From sequence record MK372342: 46,553 bases of DNA; one strand, given 5' to 3'. Below, one piece after another: positions 499 through 14,941 of this stretch. Source of the stretch: Escherichia phage vB_EcoS_IME542. Every line of letters starts with the position of its first letter. The stretch's first letter is position 1. The notes under the pieces were generated by a model. It saw nothing but the letters and a program-made list of their open reading frames with translations. It searched no databases and was not told where the DNA came from. Made by a program: the position numbers and the translations under genes.

Positions 499-524
499 AT
501 AAAAAAACCTCCCGAAGGAGGTTA
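499..524 (-). terminator. rho-independent terminator after primase gene
   Basis: Minus strand reads AACCTCC-TTCG-GGAGGTT followed by TTTTTTT; overlaps stop codon. Confidence 0.7.
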
Positions 525-1445
525 ACTATTCAATAAATCACTCGCTTTATATATCTTCTTCCTGATACCGCTCTTGAATGAGTATTCATCATTTGGTATT
601 ACCACGTCAACGTTCCTGTCATCCGCAACGCAAAGCAATTCCCTATCAAGCTTGCATGCCACTCTCAGCTTGTAGTTTCTAAGCGCATAAGCAACCATCT
701 CCATGTTGTAGCTAGAGTGGCAAACAAGCACACAGCGTTTGCCAGTAGCAAGATGAACGCGAACACCATCAATCCAATTATCGACCAGATAAGCGTACTC
801 ATCATCTTTAAAGGTGCCAATAACAGCAATAGACTGGCGAGTATAATCTTTTGCAGCATAACTAACACCCCCTTCTTCATTGATAAACATTACATTGCAC
901 ATTTCTTCTGATATGCCGTCACTATAAGCCATAAAGCACGGCACTGCGTGTATTAGTTCGCCTGATTTTGTCCTGCCAGCATCAAAACCAAACTCGCTAT
1001 AAATACCCTCGTATATGCTGAGTGGAGTAGATTCTACTCTCTCAGTCCTTTCCATTATCTCCAGGCATCTTTCGTGATCAATCTGTGCGCCCATTTTGTA
1101 GAGCTGGGTTCTTGATGCTTGCTTGTTTGCTTTAACTATAACCTCAATTGGTGTTAAGTTCAGCCAGTCACCAAGCAAATTTACTGAATCGGCGAAGGAC
1201 GATCCAGTGCACTTCATGACCCATCCTATACCGGAGTCACTTCCGCATTTCGAACAAACTGCCGCGCCATTTCCTTTTTCACTGCCTATTTCGTCGGTAA
1301 ATCTGAATCTGTCAGTGCCAAAGCAGTATGGGCATGGTCCGTGCTTCTTACTTAGGTGTCTATCATTCCAACCAAGTTCCTTTGCATAAAATGATTTCCA
1401 CAATCCGGCCATCTTAGGTATAACTTCATTCTTATCGTAATTCAT
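522..1445 (-). CDS. DNA primase (zinc-ribbon, phage/plasmid primase type)
   Basis: N-terminal CPYCFGTDRFRF...CSKCG zinc-ribbon motif typical of P4/T7-type primase Zn-binding domains; 307 aa. Confidence 0.6.
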   Translation of the reverse strand: MNYDKNEVIPKMAGLWKSFYAKELGWNDRHLSKKHGPCPYCFGTDRFRFTDEIGSEKGNGAAVCSKCGSDSGIGWVMKCTGSSFADSVNLLGDWLNLTPIEVIVKANKQASRTQLYKMGAQIDHERCLEIMERTERVESTPLSIYEGIYSEFGFDAGRTKSGELIHAVPCFMAYSDGISEEMCNVMFINEEGGVSYAAKDYTRQSIAVIGTFKDDEYAYLVDNWIDGVRVHLATGKRCVLVCHSSYNMEMVAYALRNYKLRVACKLDRELLCVADDRNVDVVIPNDEYSFKSGIRKKIYKASDLLNS

Positions 1446-1921
1446 TTGCTTAACCCGTGATTTTCGTGAAAGTTGTATTTTCTCTCTGCTTCAATTCTTA
1501 CTTTATACGCCTGCTCTGGAGTATCGAAGTTCCCAAGGTGTAGATGCTTGCCGTCAACCTTGATGTGAGCCTTAAATTTTCCGTGATTTAGCTTTGCCAC
1601 TCCACAATAACCATTTGTTGATAAAACGCTAAGCTTGCAATTTCTTGAGTTACCTTGATTTGTTGTTACTCTTAGGTTTTCTATTCTGTTATCTAATTTG
1701 TTATGGTTTATATGATCAATGTAGTCGCCATTTTGAAGCTCTCCATTAAACATCTCCCACACAACTCTATGTACATAAGTCCTAAAGCCATTAACAGACA
1801 CTTTGTAATAGCCAGATGTAGATAGTGAGTTGCACTCATCGCCAACCTTAACACGTCTTGCAGTGCTAATCTTCCAATGCAATTTGCCATCTACATAGTA
1901 AAAATAATCATGCCAGTTCAT
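1442..1921 (-). CDS. HNH homing endonuclease (HNH + AP2-like C-terminus), paralog 1 of 5
   Basis: MNWHDYFYY...DHINHNKLDNRIENLRV HNH motif; shares N- and C-terminal motifs with ORFs at 20312, 32960, 42296, 43536. Confidence 0.85.
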   Translation of the reverse strand: MNWHDYFYYVDGKLHWKISTARRVKVGDECNSLSTSGYYKVSVNGFRTYVHRVVWEMFNGELQNGDYIDHINHNKLDNRIENLRVTTNQGNSRNCKLSVLSTNGYCGVAKLNHGKFKAHIKVDGKHLHLGNFDTPEQAYKVRIEAERKYNFHENHGLSK

Positions 1922-1972: not shown

Positions 1973-2446
1973 TTACTCTTTAGCTTTTCGTGCTGCTTCG
2001 TTGGCGGCTTTAATTTTTCGCCACGAACGACACTCTGGCTTAGTGGCCAGTTCAGCCTCTGTAACCACGCGCAGCATGTGACGCTTTTTGCAGCGCAGAG
2101 TTAGCGGCTTGCCATTGCCGTCGAATTGCAGGTCTGGTCGGCAGAATGTGGCTCGAAAGCCTTCTCCATTTCGCTTGTAGTAGTTGTGTGAAAGCTGAGC
2201 TCCACGTGCCGATATCATTCCGCGCTTAAACCATTCTTCTACAGCCTGCGGTGTCACCTTTAGCTGCTTTGCGATATTCGCCTTTGTGCCGAAGAAATCA
2301 AGAACAATCTCCAGTCGCGCGCGTAGCCCGGCTCTTACTTCATCTTTTAAAACGTAGTAACCCGATGGTCGTTTTCGTTGTTTTTTGTCTTCAGTGCGGA
2401 CAGTTCCGTTATTGCCGTTAATGGTTCGCTTATCAACTGCATTCAT
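1973..2446 (-). CDS. HTH DNA-binding protein (candidate transcription regulator)
   Basis: 157 aa, basic; helix-turn-helix-like segment ANIAKQLKVTPQAVEEWFKRG; GAGGTGA RBS. Confidence 0.45.
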   Translation of the reverse strand: MNAVDKRTINGNNGTVRTEDKKQRKRPSGYYVLKDEVRAGLRARLEIVLDFFGTKANIAKQLKVTPQAVEEWFKRGMISARGAQLSHNYYKRNGEGFRATFCRPDLQFDGNGKPLTLRCKKRHMLRVVTEAELATKPECRSWRKIKAANEAARKAKE

Positions 2447-2542: not shown

Positions 2543-4537
2543 ATGCTTCCAGTAGAGCGCTTAGTAGCCAACTTTGATCAAGAGAAGATTAAGCAGATTC
2601 AGAAGGATTATCAGTTTGGAGAAATCACGCCATACCCATTCCAGTGCGTGACATTCGACCAAATAGGTAAGCACATCGCTAAGTACGAAGCGCCATTCAT
2701 AGCAGACCTGTCGGTATCGGCAGGTAAGACAATCATTCTTGCCATGATTGGTAAACGCATGGAGCAGCTTGGCCTTCCTTACATGGTGCTTTCTCGCCAG
2801 TCAGAAATCATCAGCCAGAATGCTGAAGAACTCCGTAACTTCGGTATCCGTAATAGCGTATATTGCGCTGGCCTTAACGTTAAATCTGTTTACTACCCAA
2901 CTATAGTGGCAAGTGAAGGAACGGCGGCAAACGGCTTGTTCAAGGGGCTTGGTGACTATGTTCCGGCAGTTATCGCTATTGATGAGTGTCACATGCTAAA
3001 TCATATGGATATTGTCGAAGCCGAAGAGAACGAGGAAACGTTTGAGCAGATGAGCACCGCAAAAGGTGAGATGGTTTTCAAGGATGGTGAATACACGGGG
3101 TTAACTGGTACAGGTCGTTCGCAATACACTTTAATCATTACAGAGATGAAACGCCGTTGCCGTGAGAAATACAAGCGAGAACTACGTATCTTTGGTCTCA
3201 CTGGTAGCCCATACCGTGATAACAATCATATCGTGGTAAGTAATCCTAACATTCGAGGATTTTGGCGTAAGACGGTTATGCAGGTTCCAACCAATTACCT
3301 GGTGGATTTGGGTTTTGTTGTCCCAACTGTTTACGGTGAGGTTGGTGATTTGGGTTATGATCTTGCTGAATTTGCGCCAGATGGTGATGATGGAATCAAA
3401 GACTTCAGTAAGAAAGAAATGGATGCGATGCAGGAAAAAATTCATCAAAACCAGTCCATGACGCAAAAGATTATGCAGTTCGCAGCCAAGTTTATGGAAA
3501 CTCGTAACGCAGCGCTAGTAACTTGTTCAGGCAAGCGGCATTGCGAGGAGGCAGCCGCGGCGCTTCCTGATGGCGTAACCTGGGCTATAGTAACTGACTC
3601 TACTGGTGAGAAAAAACGTCGTGAGATTCTTTCTGACGCAGCTGAAGGTAAGTATAAATTCATCTTTCAGATTGGTTGTCTCACAACCGGCGTGAACGTC
3701 CCGCCATGGGATACGTCAATAATTCTTCGGAAGGTTGGAAGCATCACGTTATTGATTCAACTTTTGGGGCGAGGTATGCGGATTCTTAAGAAGAAGCATA
3801 AGGAAATGGGAATGGTTAAGGATGATCACGTGGTGCTGGACTTCGCTGGTACTCTTGATGATATGGCAGAATTGTACTTTGACCCAATTATAGAGGAGGT
3901 GCAAGACCAGAAATTCAAGTCTTCTAGTAAAGGTGGTGACGAGCCAAGGGTATGTCCAGCTTGTAGCTATGAGAACTCGCCATTTGCTCGTCGTTGTAAT
4001 AATGTTATCGAAGGTAAAAGGTGTGAGCACTTTTTTCAGTTTCGTACCTGTGATGATATTGAAGACACGCAGACAAAAGTTACTATTAAGAAAGGTTGTG
4101 GTGAGAAGAATGATATTGCTGCTAAAAACTGCCGTTGCTGCGGAGAAATGCTTATTGACCCTAACGCAAAGCTGTCTGGAAAGATGTATCGACAAGGGGA
4201 TTGGTTGAGAGTTTACGGATTCAGTATTGGGTTAACTAAAAACCAAAACGGGATCGTTGCTCGCTATGAAATCATGGCTCACAGCGGTGACAGGTTTGTT
4301 GCTTACGAAACTTTCTTTCCAGAGAGTGATCATCGCGTTTGCTCTGTGAAGTGGAAGGCGTTTTGCCAAACTCACATCGCTAACAAAACAGAAGCATTTC
4401 GCATCGGGAGACTGCGTAATGCAAGAATGATTATGACTAACGCAAGTCAATTTCGTGAGCCTTTGCGGGTGACTCATAGAAAAAATCAGAAAGGTCAGGA
4501 TATCATTGCAAACAAATCTTTTACTATGGAGGATTGA
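2543..4537 (+). CDS. SF2 (DExH-type) helicase with C-terminal zinc-ribbon region
   Basis: Walker A VSAGKT, motif II IDECH, C-terminal CPACSY...CRCCG cysteine pairs; 664 aa. Confidence 0.7.
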   Translation: MLPVERLVANFDQEKIKQIQKDYQFGEITPYPFQCVTFDQIGKHIAKYEAPFIADLSVSAGKTIILAMIGKRMEQLGLPYMVLSRQSEIISQNAEELRNFGIRNSVYCAGLNVKSVYYPTIVASEGTAANGLFKGLGDYVPAVIAIDECHMLNHMDIVEAEENEETFEQMSTAKGEMVFKDGEYTGLTGTGRSQYTLIITEMKRRCREKYKRELRIFGLTGSPYRDNNHIVVSNPNIRGFWRKTVMQVPTNYLVDLGFVVPTVYGEVGDLGYDLAEFAPDGDDGIKDFSKKEMDAMQEKIHQNQSMTQKIMQFAAKFMETRNAALVTCSGKRHCEEAAAALPDGVTWAIVTDSTGEKKRREILSDAAEGKYKFIFQIGCLTTGVNVPPWDTSIILRKVGSITLLIQLLGRGMRILKKKHKEMGMVKDDHVVLDFAGTLDDMAELYFDPIIEEVQDQKFKSSSKGGDEPRVCPACSYENSPFARRCNNVIEGKRCEHFFQFRTCDDIEDTQTKVTIKKGCGEKNDIAAKNCRCCGEMLIDPNAKLSGKMYRQGDWLRVYGFSIGLTKNQNGIVARYEIMAHSGDRFVAYETFFPESDHRVCSVKWKAFCQTHIANKTEAFRIGRLRNARMIMTNASQFREPLRVTHRKNQKGQDIIANKSFTMED

Positions 4538-4773
4538 TTATGAGTGCATTAGCTTTAGCTATAAAGGAAATGATTGAAGAAGACATAAAGAAAAGAAACT
4601 ATGAGACTATAATGTCCGTCTCTGATAATGTTTTTGAACATATACTATATCATGGGGTAACGAGCGAGGATTCCTGTTGTGCAGGTATGGTGTACAATGG
4701 CATTTACCTTAGTGAGCATGAAATAATCTCAGCTTACTTTTCTAGAAATCAAGATGCGGAACCATTATTTTGA
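4534..4773 (+). CDS. hypothetical protein
   Basis: 79 aa ORF, ATGA start/stop overlap with helicase gene. Confidence 0.4.
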   Translation: MIMSALALAIKEMIEEDIKKRNYETIMSVSDNVFEHILYHGVTSEDSCCAGMVYNGIYLSEHEIISAYFSRNQDAEPLF

Positions 4774-5189
4774 AAATCACAGATAAAGAAGATTACATTG
4801 AGTTTTACCCTGGTGCTGTAAAGTCATGCCCAAAGGAGGACGACGAACAGATCTTTTGCTCTGATTGGGTTAAGTATCATTACCCTCAGATTGTTTACTG
4901 GCACACAGTTAATGAAGGGATGAAATCAATTGGGTCAGCAAGGAAGGATGCAGCTAAAGGGCTCCTTAAGGGCGTATCAGACTGCTTATTCCTGATACCT
5001 GAATCACTTCGCGGAAAGTACCCTTTCGGAGCCATAGAGCTAAAGAGGGCTGGCAAAACCCAGGCTAGCACAGTCAGCGACGAACAAAAGTCTTTCCTTA
5101 AAAGCGTAAGAGAATCAGGTGGTTTCTCCGCTGTAGCCTATGGGCGCGAAGGTTTTCTTGCAGCATTCAAAGAAATGATTTCAAAATAG
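4770..5189 (+). CDS. VRR-NUC / PD-(D/E)XK-like nuclease
   Basis: D-x(n)-E-L-K arrangement (DCLFL...GAIELKRAGK); 139 aa; stop TAG lies inside the TAGCA box. Confidence 0.5.
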   Translation: MKITDKEDYIEFYPGAVKSCPKEDDEQIFCSDWVKYHYPQIVYWHTVNEGMKSIGSARKDAAKGLLKGVSDCLFLIPESLRGKYPFGAIELKRAGKTQASTVSDEQKSFLKSVRESGGFSAVAYGREGFLAAFKEMISK

Positions 5190-7903: not shown

Positions 7904-8119
7904 GTGAGGGAAGTAATTAACGCCGCTACGGCATCAACAGGTGGGGCGGCTGTAACTGGCGCCGCAACTGGTCAAATGACAATCGCAATAATCAGCCTTA
8001 TAGCTCTTGTTGTTTTCGGGTTGTGGGGAGCTTACTGGAAGTTTAAGGATAGCCAGGCAATCAGGAAGGCGCTGGAGTCAGGAGATTTAAAAAAAGCTAT
8101 CAATATTAGGAGTAAGTAA
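7904..8119 (+). CDS. holin, pinholin-like (GTG start at 7904; ATG at 7976 is an alternative)
   Basis: Gly/Ala-rich weakly hydrophobic segment then TM helix MTIAIISLIALVVFGLWGAYW and charged C-terminus; immediately upstream of SAR endolysin; track start TTG 7826 lies inside the terminator. Confidence 0.55.
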   Translation: MREVINAATASTGGAAVTGAATGQMTIAIISLIALVVFGLWGAYWKFKDSQAIRKALESGDLKKAINIRSK

Positions 8120-8604
8120 TGAAGCAGAAGCTGGCAATTAGTGCAGCGACGGCAGCGGCAATATACATAGCAGCGCCGATTATTGAGCTTGTAGAGGGCG
8201 TTGAGTACAAGCCTTACATGGACATTGCAGGAATCCCTACGGTCTGTGCTGGCATTACTGGCCCTGATGTTGTATGGGGTAAGAGGTACAGTAACAGGGA
8301 GTGCCGGAATCTGCTTGAGAAGCACATTCAGATTCATGGGAAGTATGTTCAGGATGCGGTGACATACCCTATCTCTCCAGAAACAAGAGCGGCATTAATC
8401 AGTTTTAGTTATAACGTTGGCGGCTCTGCAATGAGGAAGTCCACGGCAGTAAGGTTTATTAACCAAGGTAAGATTGAGGAGGGTTGCAAGGCTCTCGGGA
8501 TGTGGAACAAGATAACCAAGAATGGTAAGAAGGTTGTCGTCAAGGGGCTCGTGAACAGGCGCAACGAGGAAATAAAATTATGCTTAAGTGGGGTTGGAAA
8601 ATGA
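8119..8604 (+). CDS. SAR endolysin (T4-lysozyme-like muramidase with N-terminal signal-anchor-release domain)
   Basis: N-terminal hydrophobic ISAATAAAIYIAAPII followed by E-x8-D-x5-T catalytic spacing (ELVEGVEYKPYMDIAGIPT). Confidence 0.8.
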   Translation: MKQKLAISAATAAAIYIAAPIIELVEGVEYKPYMDIAGIPTVCAGITGPDVVWGKRYSNRECRNLLEKHIQIHGKYVQDAVTYPISPETRAALISFSYNVGGSAMRKSTAVRFINQGKIEEGCKALGMWNKITKNGKKVVVKGLVNRRNEEIKLCLSGVGK

Positions 8605-8993
8605 AGGTTGTATTAATTGCTGCGGTGATTCTGCTTTCTGGTTGTTCGGCAACATCTGCGCTGACCGGGTTAATTGGTAGTAAACCAGAGATTAGTGCTC
8701 AGGCAGGTGCGGAGAACAATAAGGTTGGAGTTGGTTTAACGAGCAAGGTTGACTCCAGTAGCTCCAGTGAATCCACGGTTAAAGATTCCAAGGTTGGGTC
8801 GCTGGATAGCTCTAGCGGGAAAAAGACTTCTGACAACTCGATTAAGGCCTCAACAATCACTGCTGAGAAGATTGAAATCACCAACAATGATTCATCTGGA
8901 ATTTATGAATTACTGGCATTAATTGGGTTCCCTCTGTTAATTGTTTTTAATGGCTGCTATGTACTTTATAGAGCAAACAAAAAAGCCCCGTAA
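8601..8993 (+). CDS. unimolecular spanin (N-terminal lipoprotein signal plus C-terminal TM helix)
   Basis: MKVVLIAAVILLSGC lipobox and C-terminal LLALIGFPLLIVFNGCYVLY; ATGA overlap with endolysin stop; architecture of the phage T1 u-spanin. Confidence 0.7.
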   Translation: MKVVLIAAVILLSGCSATSALTGLIGSKPEISAQAGAENNKVGVGLTSKVDSSSSSESTVKDSKVGSLDSSSGKKTSDNSIKASTITAEKIEITNNDSSGIYELLALIGFPLLIVFNGCYVLYRANKKAP

Positions 8994-9008
8994 TGGGGCT
9001 ATTTTTAT
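8975..9008. terminator. bidirectional terminator between convergent spanin and minus-strand genes
   Basis: GCCCC-gtaat-GGGGC flanked by A-run and T-run. Confidence 0.6.
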
Positions 9009-9340
9009 GCAAATAATTCTTCGTCATTCATGTTTGCTATTTTCATCATCTCATTCACATAGGCACTAGACTTACCTTCAAAGCTCATAAATTCAAACTG
9101 GAATGGCCTTTTGCTCGAGCCTTTAGACCAGTACACACCATTAACTCCATCAAGATACCCAGCCGTAAGCATTCTCGCCATAAACTCCTTCGAGCAACTC
9201 GATGCAAAATATCTTTCATCAACCCCCGCAGCTTTAGCAATCCTTGCACAATCCTTGTGCTTGTAGATGAATCTTGCGAGGTGTTGGCGGTTGAAGTTTT
9301 TGCATCCTTCGCAGAACCTGTACACGTCGAGAAGAAACAT
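9005..9340 (-). CDS. hypothetical protein
   Basis: 111 aa ORF, last gene of minus-strand early block. Confidence 0.45.
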   Translation of the reverse strand: MFLLDVYRFCEGCKNFNRQHLARFIYKHKDCARIAKAAGVDERYFASSCSKEFMARMLTAGYLDGVNGVYWSKGSSKRPFQFEFMSFEGKSSAYVNEMMKIANMNDEELFA

Positions 9341-9343
9341 AGG

Positions 9344-10927
9344 TTACCCCAGCAGTCTTGGATTGATGTAAATTTTATCACCAATCAGGCACGTATAGTT
9401 TTTTTCGTCCAGCATCGGAATCAAATGGTCCTTAATACGAGTCATGATTCCAGCTTGAGCTTCAAAAGGTTTAACCTTTCGCGCAGCTTCATACAATGAG
9501 CGAACACCAACGACACCCTTACCATTTTTTCCTTGCTTAATCAGAATATCAACCAGCTTATTCATCTCAGCATTATCACCGGCGTGACCAGCGGCACTAG
9601 CGGATGACAAATAAGTCTTGCTTAGTTCGTTAAAAATCATAACCGCCTCCTGCATTGTCTCAAGCTCAATCTCCCTGGACTTCTGGGGGCTCGACCCTGC
9701 TGGTGCGAACCAGTTACGAATAACGTGCAGCACAGAGGCGATACGAATTGCTTGCTTATCAAACTTACCTAGAGCGCCACGTAACATTGTGTGAGAGTAC
9801 TTACCACCATCACCAAGGTGCGGTTCCATTTCCTGACGCGCGCGGTTCAGGTAACACATTGAAGAGGCACTTACAGTTAGTTTCACTTCGACTTCACTCA
9901 TAATCTCATGAACGAGACGGAAGTAATCAGCCTTCAGCCCACCGTCAATAGCCTCATATGTTGAGTCACCATTCTCGTCAACAAACACGCGGTCTCCAAG
10001 GAATGACTTCTCACGCACAAGCAAGAAACGTTCTGACACACCGATACCACGCGCACCAGCATTCATGATCGCGTTGATGGTCTCATCCTGTGCGATAACA
10101 GAGATGCAGCCCATAGCGACAAAGCTCATGTTATTTTCAGCGTTCGCACGCGCAATAGAAACGTTACCAGCATCCCATGCTTTCAGCACAAGCTCGCTGT
10201 TCGTTTTCTTTGAGCCATCACCATAGGTCATGCCAAGTAGTGAGTTTACGCTCGTTGCCTCATCAGAGATTACTGCGAAGTTGCCCTGTCGGTTGTTTAT
10301 TCGCGCAAGACCTTCCGGCGTGGTGTCGGATACGGGGAAAACGATATCGCACAGCTTTTCCAGCTTCTCTTCTAAATCTTCTTTTTCCTCAAAAAGTGAA
10401 GCCATCTCTGACGGAGATTTTTCCTGCTTCATCTCTTTGGATAATGCAGATAGTTTGGCAATAATCTTTTTGCGCTCGCGCTTTCGCACTTCATTAATCC
10501 GCTCAGTCTCAGCAATCATTGGGGCAATTGAAAGCGAGTTAATTGCTGATTTACCAGTTGATGGTGGCTGGCTTGTTACGACGTAGAGCGCGGTTGGCTG
10601 CTGATTTCCGTGATACTCAACAGTAAATCGACCAAGCATGGCGGCAGAAATGCACCCCAGAAAGTGCATATAAGCTGAAGACTCAGGGAATTGAACCGAA
10701 CGAGCAATGTTAGCTGATAACTTGCCCACAACATCAATATCATTACCTAGTGAGATTACAGGGTACTTATCATTTGCAGCATCAATCTCGACCGGAGCCT
10801 TCCAGAATGATTGGGACTGTCGATAACCATTAGCATTAATAGCCACGCGAAGCGGTGGAAGGTTGTCGGTCGCAGCAATTGCCATAACCTGCTCAACAGA
10901 TAGTTTATCTTCGTTGAAATCAAACAT
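9344..10927 (-). CDS. P-loop NTPase, putative replication-associated ATPase (deviant Walker A QPPSTGKS)
   Basis: Walker A-like PPSTGKSA and Walker B-like AVISDEAT; ATG 10927 with GGAG RBS preferred over track GTG 10969; 527 aa. Confidence 0.5.
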   Translation of the reverse strand: MFDFNEDKLSVEQVMAIAATDNLPPLRVAINANGYRQSQSFWKAPVEIDAANDKYPVISLGNDIDVVGKLSANIARSVQFPESSAYMHFLGCISAAMLGRFTVEYHGNQQPTALYVVTSQPPSTGKSAINSLSIAPMIAETERINEVRKRERKKIIAKLSALSKEMKQEKSPSEMASLFEEKEDLEEKLEKLCDIVFPVSDTTPEGLARINNRQGNFAVISDEATSVNSLLGMTYGDGSKKTNSELVLKAWDAGNVSIARANAENNMSFVAMGCISVIAQDETINAIMNAGARGIGVSERFLLVREKSFLGDRVFVDENGDSTYEAIDGGLKADYFRLVHEIMSEVEVKLTVSASSMCYLNRARQEMEPHLGDGGKYSHTMLRGALGKFDKQAIRIASVLHVIRNWFAPAGSSPQKSREIELETMQEAVMIFNELSKTYLSSASAAGHAGDNAEMNKLVDILIKQGKNGKGVVGVRSLYEAARKVKPFEAQAGIMTRIKDHLIPMLDEKNYTCLIGDKIYINPRLLG

Positions 10928-10939
10928 CTTAATACTCCA

Positions 10940-11000
10940 TCTCGTTAATATGCGGGCATTATATAACACCCGCTCAGTATGTCTTTATCTTTTAGTGCTA
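10940..11000 (-). promoter_or_regulatory. boxed promoter element (degenerate box, -10 TATAAT within hairpin loop GCGGG/CCCGC)
   Basis: Minus strand reads TAGCACTAAAAGATA ... GAGCGGG-tgttatataat-GCCCGC ... AACGAGATGGAG. Confidence 0.45.
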
Positions 11001-12914: not shown

Positions 12915-13204
12915 TTGCGTTCGATGTATGCATTAATTTCTTCAGAAGTTTCCATTGCGGAGCGGAAAGCGCCTTTTGCGTGGCGAGCATCACGGAATGA
13001 CTGGAAGAATTTACGAGCAACGTTTGCGAACATCGCGCCAGTTATACGAGCATCACCGAAATTAGTTTCGATTGAGTTACTGATGCCATCACGGAACTCA
13101 TTCTCAGTCATGAACATTTCAGCAATTTCAGCGGTGGCGAAAAGGTCTGCCAGTGATTGCATATTTTCGTGGTCAGCTTTAGTGAAAAGGTTCATGTTAA
13201 TCAT
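12899..13204 (-). CDS. hypothetical protein; C-terminus NSTNC-stop encoded by the palindromic box
   Basis: 101 aa; GGAGA RBS; first gene of minus-strand early block. Confidence 0.5.
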   Translation of the reverse strand: MINMNLFTKADHENMQSLADLFATAEIAEMFMTENEFRDGISNSIETNFGDARITGAMFANVARKFFQSFRDARHAKGAFRSAMETSEEINAYIERNSTNC

Positions 13205-13221
13205 TTTCGTGTCTCCGTGAG

Positions 13222-13285
13222 TTCTTCGTTTCGATGGAGTAATAATAGCAAATCACTCCTGATTGGTCATTAGCAAAAAGTGCTA
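13222..13285 (-). promoter_or_regulatory. boxed promoter element (perfect box TAGCActttttGCTA, hairpin AATCA/TGATT, extended -10 TGcTATTAT, CATCGAAACGAAG)
   Basis: Read directly on minus strand. Confidence 0.55.
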
Positions 13286-13305
13286 TTCGTTGGATTTATT
13301 GATTC

Positions 13306-13400
13306 TTGCAGATATTGCAATGATTCACCTCATTATTGCACATATAGCAATATTGTATCTGATGCAATGATGTTTTTGATTGTTGCGAATTTAGCAATTA
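13306..13400. repeat. cluster of short WWGCAAT motifs (ATTGCAAT, ATAGCAAT, GATGCAAT, TTAGCAAT, TTGCAC, TTGCGAAT) in divergent control region
   Basis: At least six copies within ~100 bp read directly; ATTGCAAT is itself palindromic. Confidence 0.45.
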
Positions 13401-13549
13401 TTTGTGTGGGAGTGAATGAATAGAGGAAGGACTACCATACAAGTTGATTTTGATTCTGGCTGAGCCATTTTGGATGTACACGTTACCGAAGTTATGTTGT
13501 GTAGATGCACCCACCCTCCGTAGGAATGCTGTACGCCTATAACGCGCAA

Positions 13550-13635
13550 TTACGCAATGGTTACATAATAATATCTATATATATCAACCTTTTACTTTAT
13601 TATTATTATTATTATTATATATATGTATATCTTGT
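13550..13635 (+). repeat. copy A of ~85 bp direct repeat with (TTA)7 microsatellite in divergent non-coding region
   Basis: TTACGCAATGGTTACATAATAATATCTATATATATCAACCTTTTACT(TTA)n... nearly identical to 40753..40835. Confidence 0.7.
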
Positions 13636-13800
13636 ATATCTGTCATATGGGGAGGGTCGATAGTTTTTTATGAAAATGACTATATTTATCTATATTAATA
13701 TATATAGGTATACCCCCGACATTTCCGCGGAAATTCATACACACGACATTTACACCGCTTCTGGCGCGGCTCTCAGAGTGGTTTGGCGTATCTGGCTGAA

Positions 13801-13846
13801 AATAACATGAGATAACACTTGATAACATGTAGATGTGTGATACTAT
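13801..13846 (+). promoter_or_regulatory. candidate early promoter: three phased 10-bp repeats (AATAACATGA GATAACACTT GATAACATGT), -35 TTGATA, 16 nt spacer, extended -10 TGaTACTAT
   Basis: Read directly; about 40 nt upstream of RBS AGGAG and start 13889. Confidence 0.5.
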
Positions 13847-13888
13847 GGATGCATCTTAACGAAGAGCAACCAATCAGGAGTAATAAGA

Positions 13889-14407
13889 ATGTCAGAACGT
13901 AAAGAAGCAGTAAGTCTTGGTGAAGTAGCTCGCTACATGGCGACTCAGGCTTTAAATAGCGACACGAAATCATTTGCAGTACCAGTGCGTATGATTGTTC
14001 GCCAGGTGTACGGGCTTAGCAAGGAGGAAATTAGCAAGGTTTATGATGAAGACCTTAAGCCGGATGGTAAGTACAATCTCAATAAGCTGAAGTCCTCATA
14101 CGTTTCAAACACAGTAAGTCGCATGCCTGAAATTAAGGCTGCAAACGTCAGGTCCATGTTCTCGATAAAGGATATGGAGTTTAATGGTGAGGAGGTTCGT
14201 TCTGCGGTAATCTCGCTTGTTCCTGGTGCAATCAATCATGGCTCACGAAGCAAAGCAGGGGAAGAGAGGGAGGCGGCTATCATTGAGAAGTTCAAGAAGC
14301 GACTTCTTGCAGTTACTCCGAGCGTAATCCACCTGAAAGGCGAGGAGCTTAATGGCGCAATGTTCGCACTAACCGCTTACCAGGAACTTATCAAGGAGAC
14401 CAAATAA
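13889..14407 (+). CDS. hypothetical early protein (first gene of plus-strand early operon)
   Basis: 172 aa; AGGAG RBS 8 nt upstream. Confidence 0.55.
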   Translation: MSERKEAVSLGEVARYMATQALNSDTKSFAVPVRMIVRQVYGLSKEEISKVYDEDLKPDGKYNLNKLKSSYVSNTVSRMPEIKAANVRSMFSIKDMEFNGEEVRSAVISLVPGAINHGSRSKAGEEREAAIIEKFKKRLLAVTPSVIHLKGEELNGAMFALTAYQELIKETK

Positions 14408-14941
14408 TGGGAATGTTTGATTTCAATGATGTGAAGCTAAGTGGCGAGGAAATCGTAAGAATTGCGCAGCGTGATGGTTACTCAATTCTTCGCGTGGCAA
14501 TCAGTAATAACTGATATCGGCAAACTCAGCGCTTCTGGGGTCGCCCTGATGCATCGTCAATCTACAAAGGTAGCGAGCATGCGGTTCTTGTTAATCTAAT
14601 TAGGAAAATGGGAAGAAACGGGAAAAGGGGTGCTTGGTGTTAGGTCATTATACGAAGGCCTCAGGAAATCAAAACCAGTTGATTCACGTAATGTCAGACT
14701 AATGGCGAGGCTTCAGGAGGGACTTATCCCAGACCTAGAGAAGATGAATCTCGTCTGCATGATTGGTGATAAGATTTATGTTCACCCTGCAATCCTTGAT
14801 GAGTGTTGGGAACCTAACTTCAAAGTATACGAAGGTGAGCATCCTAGTAGACTACCATACCACTTGCGTTACAGTGAGGAGGAGGTTGAGATGGCTATGA
14901 AGTTCTATCGGAAAGCTAAATTACTCCTGACTGGGAAATAG
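14407..14941 (+). pseudogene. disrupted, internally deleted paralogue of the P-loop ATPase gene (9344..10927): N-terminal and C-terminal homology only, in-frame TGA and a frameshift
   Basis: MGMFDFNDVKLSGEEIVRIAQRDGYSILRVAISNN-stop-YRQTQRFWGRP matches ATPase N-terminus MFDFNEDKLSVEQVMAIAATDNLPPLRVAINANGYRQSQSFWKAP; GVRSLYEGLRKSKP...LVCMIGDKIYVHP matches ATPase C-terminus GVRSLYEAARKVKP...YTCLIGDKIYINP. Confidence 0.5.

Follow-up and report, generated by a model that had tools for sequence, protein, structure and literature searches.

A probable MCM-like DUF3987 helicase gene in Escherichia phage vB_EcoS_IME542 and the disrupted locus of its headless paralogue

The DNA analyzed here is a stretch of 46,553 nucleotides from Escherichia phage vB_EcoS_IME542 (record MK372342), referred to below as the window, and is essentially the whole genome of a T1-like siphovirus of the Drexlerviridae, subfamily Braunvirinae. 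Two loci are its subject: a minus-strand gene encoding a 527-residue ATPase of the DUF3987 family, and a plus-strand locus holding a disrupted, "headless" paralogue, which consists of the two ends of that protein and a short tail. The original prediction had described a large early ATPase with a deviant Walker A motif and a diverged duplicate, and had proposed a replication initiator, a helicase loader or a D5/VirE-type primase-helicase ATPase. The 527-residue minus-strand frame and its QPPSTGKS and DEAT motifs proved real, and the ideas of a replication ATPase and of duplicated termini stood; neither the deviance of the P-loop nor the D5/VirE and loader guesses survived. The two loci comprise the following features.

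9344..10927, minus strand: DUF3987-family, MCM-like AAA+ helicase gene, 527 residues, ATG start, stop codon at 9344..9346
10793..10927, minus strand: N-terminal three-helix module, residues 1-45 (model helices 11-21, 25-33, 36-41), duplicated in the paralogue (BLASTP E=1e-12)
10547..10570, minus strand: Walker A QPPSTGKS, residues 120-127
10355..10558, minus strand: long helical hairpin, residues 124-191, extending the P-loop helix (helices 124-168 and 172-191), charged and coiled-coil-like
10253..10264, minus strand: Walker B DEAT, residues 222-225, after the predicted strand FAVIS (216-221)
10091..10174, minus strand: beta-hairpin, residues 252-279 (strands 252-258 and 267-279), ending in VIAQDE, its flexible tip bearing Arg260
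10025..10036, minus strand: SERF motif, residues 298-301, just before strand 302-305
9347..9592, minus strand: C-terminal winged-helix domain, residues 446-527, duplicated in the paralogue
14407..14941, plus strand: disrupted headless paralogue (PHROG 7327), with helicase N-terminus, winged helix and a tail of about 45 residues, without the ATPase core
14512..14514, plus strand: in-frame TGA at codon 36 of the paralogue, replacing the conserved Gly of NANGYRQ
14620..14630, plus strand: +1 frameshift (one extra base relative to intact homologues) in the run GGGAAAAGGGG

A longer minus-strand open reading frame runs from a GTG over 9344..10969 (541 residues); this start was rejected in favor of the ATG at 10927 because Met1 is invariant in 24 homologues and a GGAG lies 7 nt upstream of the ATG. 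The 73-bp gap upstream of the gene contains a sigma-70-like promoter match (10958..10985, minus strand; AAGACA, a 16-nt spacer and TATAAT, 10/12), which is a match to the consensus only, the count of such matches in the region being equal to the shuffle expectation.

The Pfam search and structure prediction proposed as checks by the original prediction returned, respectively, DUF3987 and an MCM-like AAA+ fold. DUF3987 (PF13148) matches residues 81-433 with E=1.4e-39 and 136.8 bits against a cut-off of 27, over profile positions 3-352 of 364, and PHROG 2373 ("DNA helicase") covers the whole 527-residue length (E=2.4e-252). By tblastn the helicase was found in 921 phage records, nearly full length in 896 of them, including T1, KP36, JeanPiccard and Vi II-E1, with identities of 57% in T1, 65% in KP36-like Klebsiella phages and 35% in Vi II-E1-type Salmonella phages; a profile search of 1.84 billion cluster representatives returned 5,936 relatives at E<=0.001. 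The exact sequence was not found in public assemblies. The helicase is an ordinary, highly conserved DUF3987 member and a core gene of T1-like phages, and several relatives already carry it as "DUF3987 domain-containing protein", "DNA helicase" or "putative helicase". It is thus not new in kind; what is new is the undescribed headless paralogue, or mini-protein, considered below. A D5/VirE-type superfamily 3 (SF3) primase-helicase ATPase, or a DnaC/lambda-P-like loader, would be in keeping with a general P-loop and a large size in the phage early region, but such an identity is contradicted by both profile and fold searches and is very improbable. There was no Pfam match to VirE (PF05272), D5_N/D5_C, MCM or loader families, loader profiles and folds (DnaC/IstB, lambda P) gave no matches, and the MCM profile PF00493 had none at E<=0.1. 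Searches of PDB chains by sequence (phmmer, and hmmsearch with a 24-sequence profile) returned noise at E>=0.1 (6zsv, FabG, a designed coil) and no MCM chain, so that a DUF3987 structure is not detectable by sequence among the chains searched.

Conservation was scored in the 150 best representatives at 50% identity (about 142-147 scorable per position) and in a close set of 24 close and moderately distant homologues. Within the close set Q120, P121, P122, S123, G125, K126 and S127 are invariant, giving QPPS[TSA]GKS, and the broader pattern Q-P-x-x-x-[GAS]-K-[ST] is kept in 138/142 representatives. Gln occupies the canonical first-Gly position of Walker A in the same proportion (138/142), and the Q-type P-loop extends to distant primase-fused members (QPSGTGKS, QPASSGKS, QPPAAAKS). 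What had been taken for an oddity of this one protein is therefore the consensus of the whole DUF3987 subfamily. The P-loop of MCM proteins is also proline-containing (GDPxx[AG]KS), so the MCM resemblance includes this motif. Glu223 of the DEAT motif is present in 144/144 representatives, which together with the P-loop counts shows that neither motif is a chance match; Asp222 is Asp in only 55/147, with Ala or Ser in most others. Loss of the Walker B Asp beside an invariant Glu is unusual for an active AAA+ ATPase. E299 and R300 of the SERF motif are invariant in close homologues, and Arg300, found in 142/142 representatives, mirrors the arginine finger of the MCM "SRF" motif. Arg260 is kept in 144/145, and the hairpin that carries it, where pLDDT (predicted local distance difference test score) falls below 50 for residues 261-266, may correspond to the presensor-1 hairpin, which contacts DNA in MCM, together with the sensor-1 strand, judging from the model and the conservation. 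Lys388 is invariant and Arg383 in the lid is common (99/147); K126, E223, R260, R300 and K388 are each conserved in at least 141 of about 147 representatives.

A confident AlphaFold2 model built from the 24-sequence alignment (pLDDT 87; predicted template modeling score 0.86) places a helical region at 66-97, an alpha/beta core at about 101-345, a helical lid at 354-446 and a winged helix at 451-521. When the model was compared with the PDB by Foldseek, all 50 best matches were MCM subunits (best E=8e-6), and the predicted core has an MCM-type AAA+ fold with an SRF-type arginine finger and a putative presensor-1 hairpin; there was no SF3 helicase and no DnaC-type loader in either fold-search list. 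The proposal of a replication-type P-loop ATPase is supported. Distant DUF3987 members align in two stretches that skip the hairpin of about 68 residues at 124-191, which for this reason looks clade-specific. In searches this hairpin gave spurious weak matches only, to SNARE, 14-3-3 and JetC coiled coils.

At the DNA level the helicase gene shares 84-87% identity with its counterparts in phiA2-1, TR1, JeanPiccard and Veterinaerplatzvirus isolates. Compared with phiA2-1 the protein is 97% identical and the DNA 86.6%, and the ratio of nonsynonymous to synonymous substitution rates (dN/dS) against phiA2-1 and JeanPiccard is 0.017-0.037, uniform across the N-terminus, core and winged helix; the helicase is under strong purifying selection. 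Relatives with 36-39% identity to it reveal a link to primases. In one metagenomic relative (L029, 7540..8319) a DnaG-type primase begins no more than 4 nt after the DUF3987 gene and a superfamily 2 (SF2) helicase comes next, and in another (L028) the order is DUF3987, a 75-residue gene, a 310-residue gene and an SF2 helicase. Fusions occur as well, of a DnaG zinc-ribbon to the entire DUF3987 module (P0150) and of the DnaB N-terminal, primase-binding domain to DUF3987 (P0185). The window holds a DUF3987 helicase, a primase and an SF2 helicase, but dispersed, and gene order in these genomes suggests that in T1-like phages the module has been pulled apart. No DNA polymerase is annotated in the gene lists of relatives, and the paper on phage TLS describes T1 and TLS as without polymerase genes.

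The best explanation of these results, and one that we regard as probable, is that 9344..10927 encodes an MCM-like (superfamily 6, AAA+) DUF3987 ring helicase acting at the phage fork, accompanied by a pseudogenized locus for a helicase-derived mini-protein. What the analysis shows directly is family membership, the predicted fold, motif conservation, strong purifying selection, the primase linkage of relatives, and how the paralogue is built and where it is broken. Hexamer formation, helicase activity, the replicative role and any function of the mini-protein are inferred; the protein is most likely a hexameric replicative helicase working with a T7-type phage primase and the host polymerase. 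The subunits would form a ring in which ATP is bound at Lys126/Ser127 of QPPSTGKS and hydrolyzed with Glu223, while Arg300 of SERF from the neighboring subunit would complete the active site. The flexible beta-hairpin with its invariant Arg260 would draw DNA through the central channel, and the C-terminal winged helix and small N-terminal helical module may bind DNA or partner proteins. The fork so unwound would serve the stand-alone phage primase and, since the phage encodes no polymerase of its own, the DNA polymerase of the host.

Several points weigh against this assignment. The N-terminal OB/zinc domain of MCM is absent, residues 1-100 being predicted as all-helical with no Cys4 motif, and the fold comparison uses a predicted model with full-length TM-scores of only 0.3-0.38. 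Because the Walker B Asp, often replaced by Ala or Ser, is lost in about half of representatives, classical Mg2+ coordination is no constant of the family. The primase lies about 8 kb from the helicase in the window and is not adjacent to it, and the 664-residue SF2 helicase that is also present has been called "the" DNA helicase by many annotators. The polarity of unwinding is not predictable, AgaPH (described below) working 5'-3' and MCM 3'-5', and no biochemical or genetic work on Drexlerviridae members of the family was found in the literature searched, which likewise held nothing usable on T1 replication genetics or DUF7174.

An extension of the ring-helicase assignment, rather than a replacement for it, is that the protein also serves as a self-loading initiator, recognizing an origin through its winged helix and N-terminal module, melting it and then unwinding the fork, by analogy with the Rep proteins of staphylococcal pathogenicity islands (SaPI). 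The C-terminal winged helix would allow such a combined role, which we rate as less likely than not. MCM winged helices are often regulatory rather than origin-binding, there is no mapped origin and there are no iterons beside or inside the gene, and any of many small early genes without known function could encode the initiator. Staphylococcal self-loading helicases (SaPI Rep; SCCmec Cch, DUF927) differ from the IME542 helicase in belonging to a different Pfam family and in giving a much weaker structural match. A further alternative is an AAA+ motor employed away from the fork, as a recombination or repair translocase, a chaperone-like ATPase of the MoxR/RavA type or an anti-defense factor. 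The helicase, the paralogue fragment and DUF7174 all lacked meaningful matches in NCBIfam and PADLOC, and there is therefore no sign in these collections of a defense or anti-defense family; a role of this general kind is judged unlikely.

The ring-helicase assignment agrees with what has been written of the family elsewhere. DUF3987 has been described as a divergent, MCM-related branch of superfamily 6 (SF6) with a winged helix-turn-helix at the C-terminus, often fused to or next to primases, and a replicative helicase role has been predicted (PMC4889955; see also PMC5862659). AgaPH, a PriCT-DUF3987 protein of a Seonamhaeicola mobile element, is an oligomeric 5'-3' helicase that depends on ATP or dATP, requires both its Walker A and its Walker B motif and binds its own primase-polymerase (PMC11724360). 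The IME542 helicase belongs to the same Pfam family, with a score well over the threshold, and likewise has Walker A and B motifs and a small C-terminal winged helix; the family tie to primases is seen in its relatives as adjacency or fusion. It differs in having no PriCT domain, its N-terminus being the 45-residue helical module followed by a helical region, in the long helical hairpin after its P-loop, and in a primase that is DnaG/T7-type and distant in the genome whereas that of AgaPH is an adjacent AEP PrimPol. Compared with MCM (PF00493), it has no Pfam MCM match and no N-terminal OB-fold/zinc-finger domain, carries Gln for the first Gly of Walker A and an extra helical hairpin, and is only 10-16% identical. 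For the dns protein of phage N4 and the SF6 protein of mycobacteriophage Corndog, both of them DUF3987/SF6 proteins, a role as replicative helicase has been predicted (Kazlauskas et al., 2016, PMC4889955); dns has a C-terminal AEP primase domain, whereas the IME542 protein is helicase-only. The vaccinia D5/VirE primase-helicases are similarly P-loop replication ATPases of phages and viruses, often beside primase domains, but belong to SF3 and have no sequence or fold match to the IME542 helicase.

The second locus begins with an ATG at 14407 that overlaps the stop codon of the DUF7174 gene as TAATG. From this ATG the frame reads MGMFDFNDVKLSGEEIVRIAQRDGYSILRVAISNN up to the TGA at codon 36, beyond which YRQTQRFWGRPDASSIYKGSEHAVLVNLIRKMGRNGK follows without a change of frame. 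Deleting one A in GGGAAAAGGGG restores RNGKGVLGVRSLYE and joins the open reading frame at 14630..14941, which by itself covers only positions 74-179 of the 179 in the PHROG 7327 profile (E=9e-33) and is thus homologous but disrupted. Once repaired by reading the TGA as X and dropping one A, the paralogue aligns with helicase residues 1-45 at 56% identity (E=1e-12) and with residues 458-526 at 51% (E=1e-21), and in a profile-profile comparison mini-protein residues 51-131 match helicase residues 446-527 with 99.4% probability (E=5e-22). The earlier claim that the terminal domains are duplicated here is thereby borne out, and since the repaired product and the profiles align to the ends of the helicase only, both termini are duplicated and the whole ATPase core is missing. 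The locus would be that of a pseudogenized accessory mini-protein derived from the helicase through deletion of residues ~46-445 and addition of a short tail.

As the sequence reads, the TGA and the frameshift seem to leave no plausible full-length paralogue product in IME542. At 0.19-0.31, dN/dS is not elevated in the window copy relative to intact copies, so that the inactivation is recent or, less likely, an artefact. That the gene is intact in the real phage, with both lesions being sequencing or assembly errors, would fit the position of the frameshift in a homopolymer run, the dN/dS value, and the in-frame stops of three other lineages (two TGA, one TAG), downstream of which the sequence is conserved. 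Against this, there are two independent lesions in one 535-bp gene, the TGA is a substitution and not a homopolymer error, and low dN/dS is equally expected after recent inactivation; an intact gene is on balance rather unlikely. Still less likely is a variant in which both lesions are bypassed, since it would take a pair of recoding events within a single small gene, something without precedent. Programmed recoding of the window copy, by read-through of the TGA and a +1 slip on AAA-A, was likewise rejected because it needs two rare events.

Intact copies of the mini-protein are common, forming 267 clusters at 90% identity, of which those listed are almost all 173-178 residues long. Homologues of the IME542 paralogue are normally 174-177 residues when intact and belong to PHROG 7327 and to no Pfam family. 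About 109 phage records hold a nearly full-length mini-protein, from Braunvirinae and Rogunavirinae (JeanPiccard, TR1, DTL, Jk06) and a few others, and its gene always follows directly on the DUF7174 gene (JeanPiccard, phiA2-1, Veterinaerplatzvirus, TR1, Jk06). The architecture is that of the helicase minus residues ~46-445 plus a tail of about 45 residues (…EGEHPSRLPYHLRYSEEEVE.A.EFYRKAK.LL.G). Mini-proteins are 45-56% identical between phages whose helicases are 93-98% identical, and their dN/dS is 0.13-0.31; the mini-protein evolves far faster than the helicase. Concerted evolution of the two genes was rejected, the paralogues being no closer to the helicase of their own phage than to those of others, with no sign of gene conversion.

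In-frame stops interrupt the mini-protein gene in four lineages, IME542 and three others, and in the latter all lie within 8 codons of the predicted disordered linker YEGEHPSR.

Veterinaerplatzvirus (L008/L003), codon 141: YE[TGA]EHPS
DTL (L010), codon 141: YEG[TAG]HAS
phiA2-1 (L002), codon 141: EHPS[TGA]LPY, the normal stop also being changed to Trp

By a rough estimate, the probability that three of four stops fall by chance in one 8-codon stretch of a 175-codon gene is about 1%. The tails downstream of the linker stops remain in frame and conserved, with dN/dS of 0.10-0.51 downstream of the premature stops, a value taken over only about 30 codons and from pairwise comparisons that average both lineages. 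It is possible that loss of the tail is tolerated or favored while the body is kept; a second possible reading is low-level read-through giving two isoforms. The intact mini-protein probably acts on the DNA site or partner that the helicase uses, either as its competitor or as its helper. A more specific but doubtful proposal is that it is a functional, fast-evolving modulator of the helicase under conflicting selection on its C-terminal tail, which would explain both the clustering of stops in the linker of three lineages and the loss of the gene here. Such a modulator would combine the N-terminal module and winged helix of the helicase with a disordered linker and a terminal helix. Its gene is restricted to the Braunvirinae/Rogunavirinae branch and is always the second of the rightward operon beginning at the pac-proximal intergenic region. 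By occupying the DNA site or partner of the helicase, it could time replication as a dominant-negative factor, serve as an adaptor or act as a decoy toward sensors of the host.

T1-like phages often contaminate laboratories and fermentations and are candidates for phage therapy, yet their replication has barely been studied. For the helicase the present result is mainly corrective, as many T1-like genomes label the gene "hypothetical" and call the SF2 enzyme "the" helicase, while the present evidence points to the DUF3987 protein as the replisome's ring helicase, the phages of this family relying on the polymerase of their host. Among the features of the family, the P-loop with Gln for Gly, the often missing Walker B Asp and the long hairpin after the P-loop merit a structure. 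Some modest further interest attaches to the headless paralogue, which is undescribed, and to its recurrent truncation; the paralogue offers a natural experiment on which parts of the helicase act alone, and its repeated truncation hints at a host-dependent cost.

Elsewhere in the window, gene order agrees with that of annotated relatives, and identity to phage IME253 is about 85% over the structural half. The genes around the two loci are as follows.

522..1445, minus strand: stand-alone primase with T7-type zinc ribbon (Pfam Zn_Ribbon_Prim E=3e-10), annotated "DNA primase" in JeanPiccard and TR1
1442..1921, minus strand: HNH_3 homing-type endonuclease, between the primase and the Cro-like regulator
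1973..2446, minus strand: Cro-like regulator
2543..4537, plus strand: SF2 helicase, 664 residues (Helicase_C and ResIII matches)
4770..5189, plus strand: VRR-NUC nuclease
8119..8604 and 8580..8993: lysis cassette, endolysin and spanin, respectively
9005..9340, minus strand: 111-residue gene of PHROG 2794, in no Pfam family and of unknown function, 3 nt downstream of the helicase stop
13889..14407, plus strand: DUF7174 gene (Pfam PF23796, E=1.3e-50)

The primase is the presumed partner of the 527-residue helicase, and the SF2 helicase completes, as third member, the module whose genes lie side by side in distant relatives. The endonuclease is present at the site between primase and Cro-like regulator in IME542 and TR1, and there is none there in JeanPiccard. 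A leftward block of small genes, spanning about 13204 to 9005, has the helicase gene near its end; the 111-residue gene that closes this block is syntenic with the helicase in JeanPiccard, phiA2-1 and TR1, and its product may be a partner of the helicase. A rightward block of small genes starts at 13889 and leads to the terminase at about 18150.

These divergent blocks are separated by a 680-bp AT-rich intergenic region (13200..13890). In it a 16-bp imperfect palindrome, TTGCNNATNTNGCAAT, occurs in three exact copies (13306..13321, 13336..13351 and 13383..13398), and with up to one mismatch there are 5 matches in the whole window against 0.55 expected by chance. Relatives have one or two copies at the same place, and in TR1 about 80 bp separate the motif from the pac site mapped by PhageTerm; the palindrome may serve as an operator or be recognized by the terminase (pac). 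The stretch 13560..13715, which lies between the palindromes and the rightward operon, is very AT-rich, with (TTA)7 at 13597..13618 and TA-rich repeats of 9-10 bp, and might be a DNA-unwinding element or a promoter cluster, or else belong to pac.

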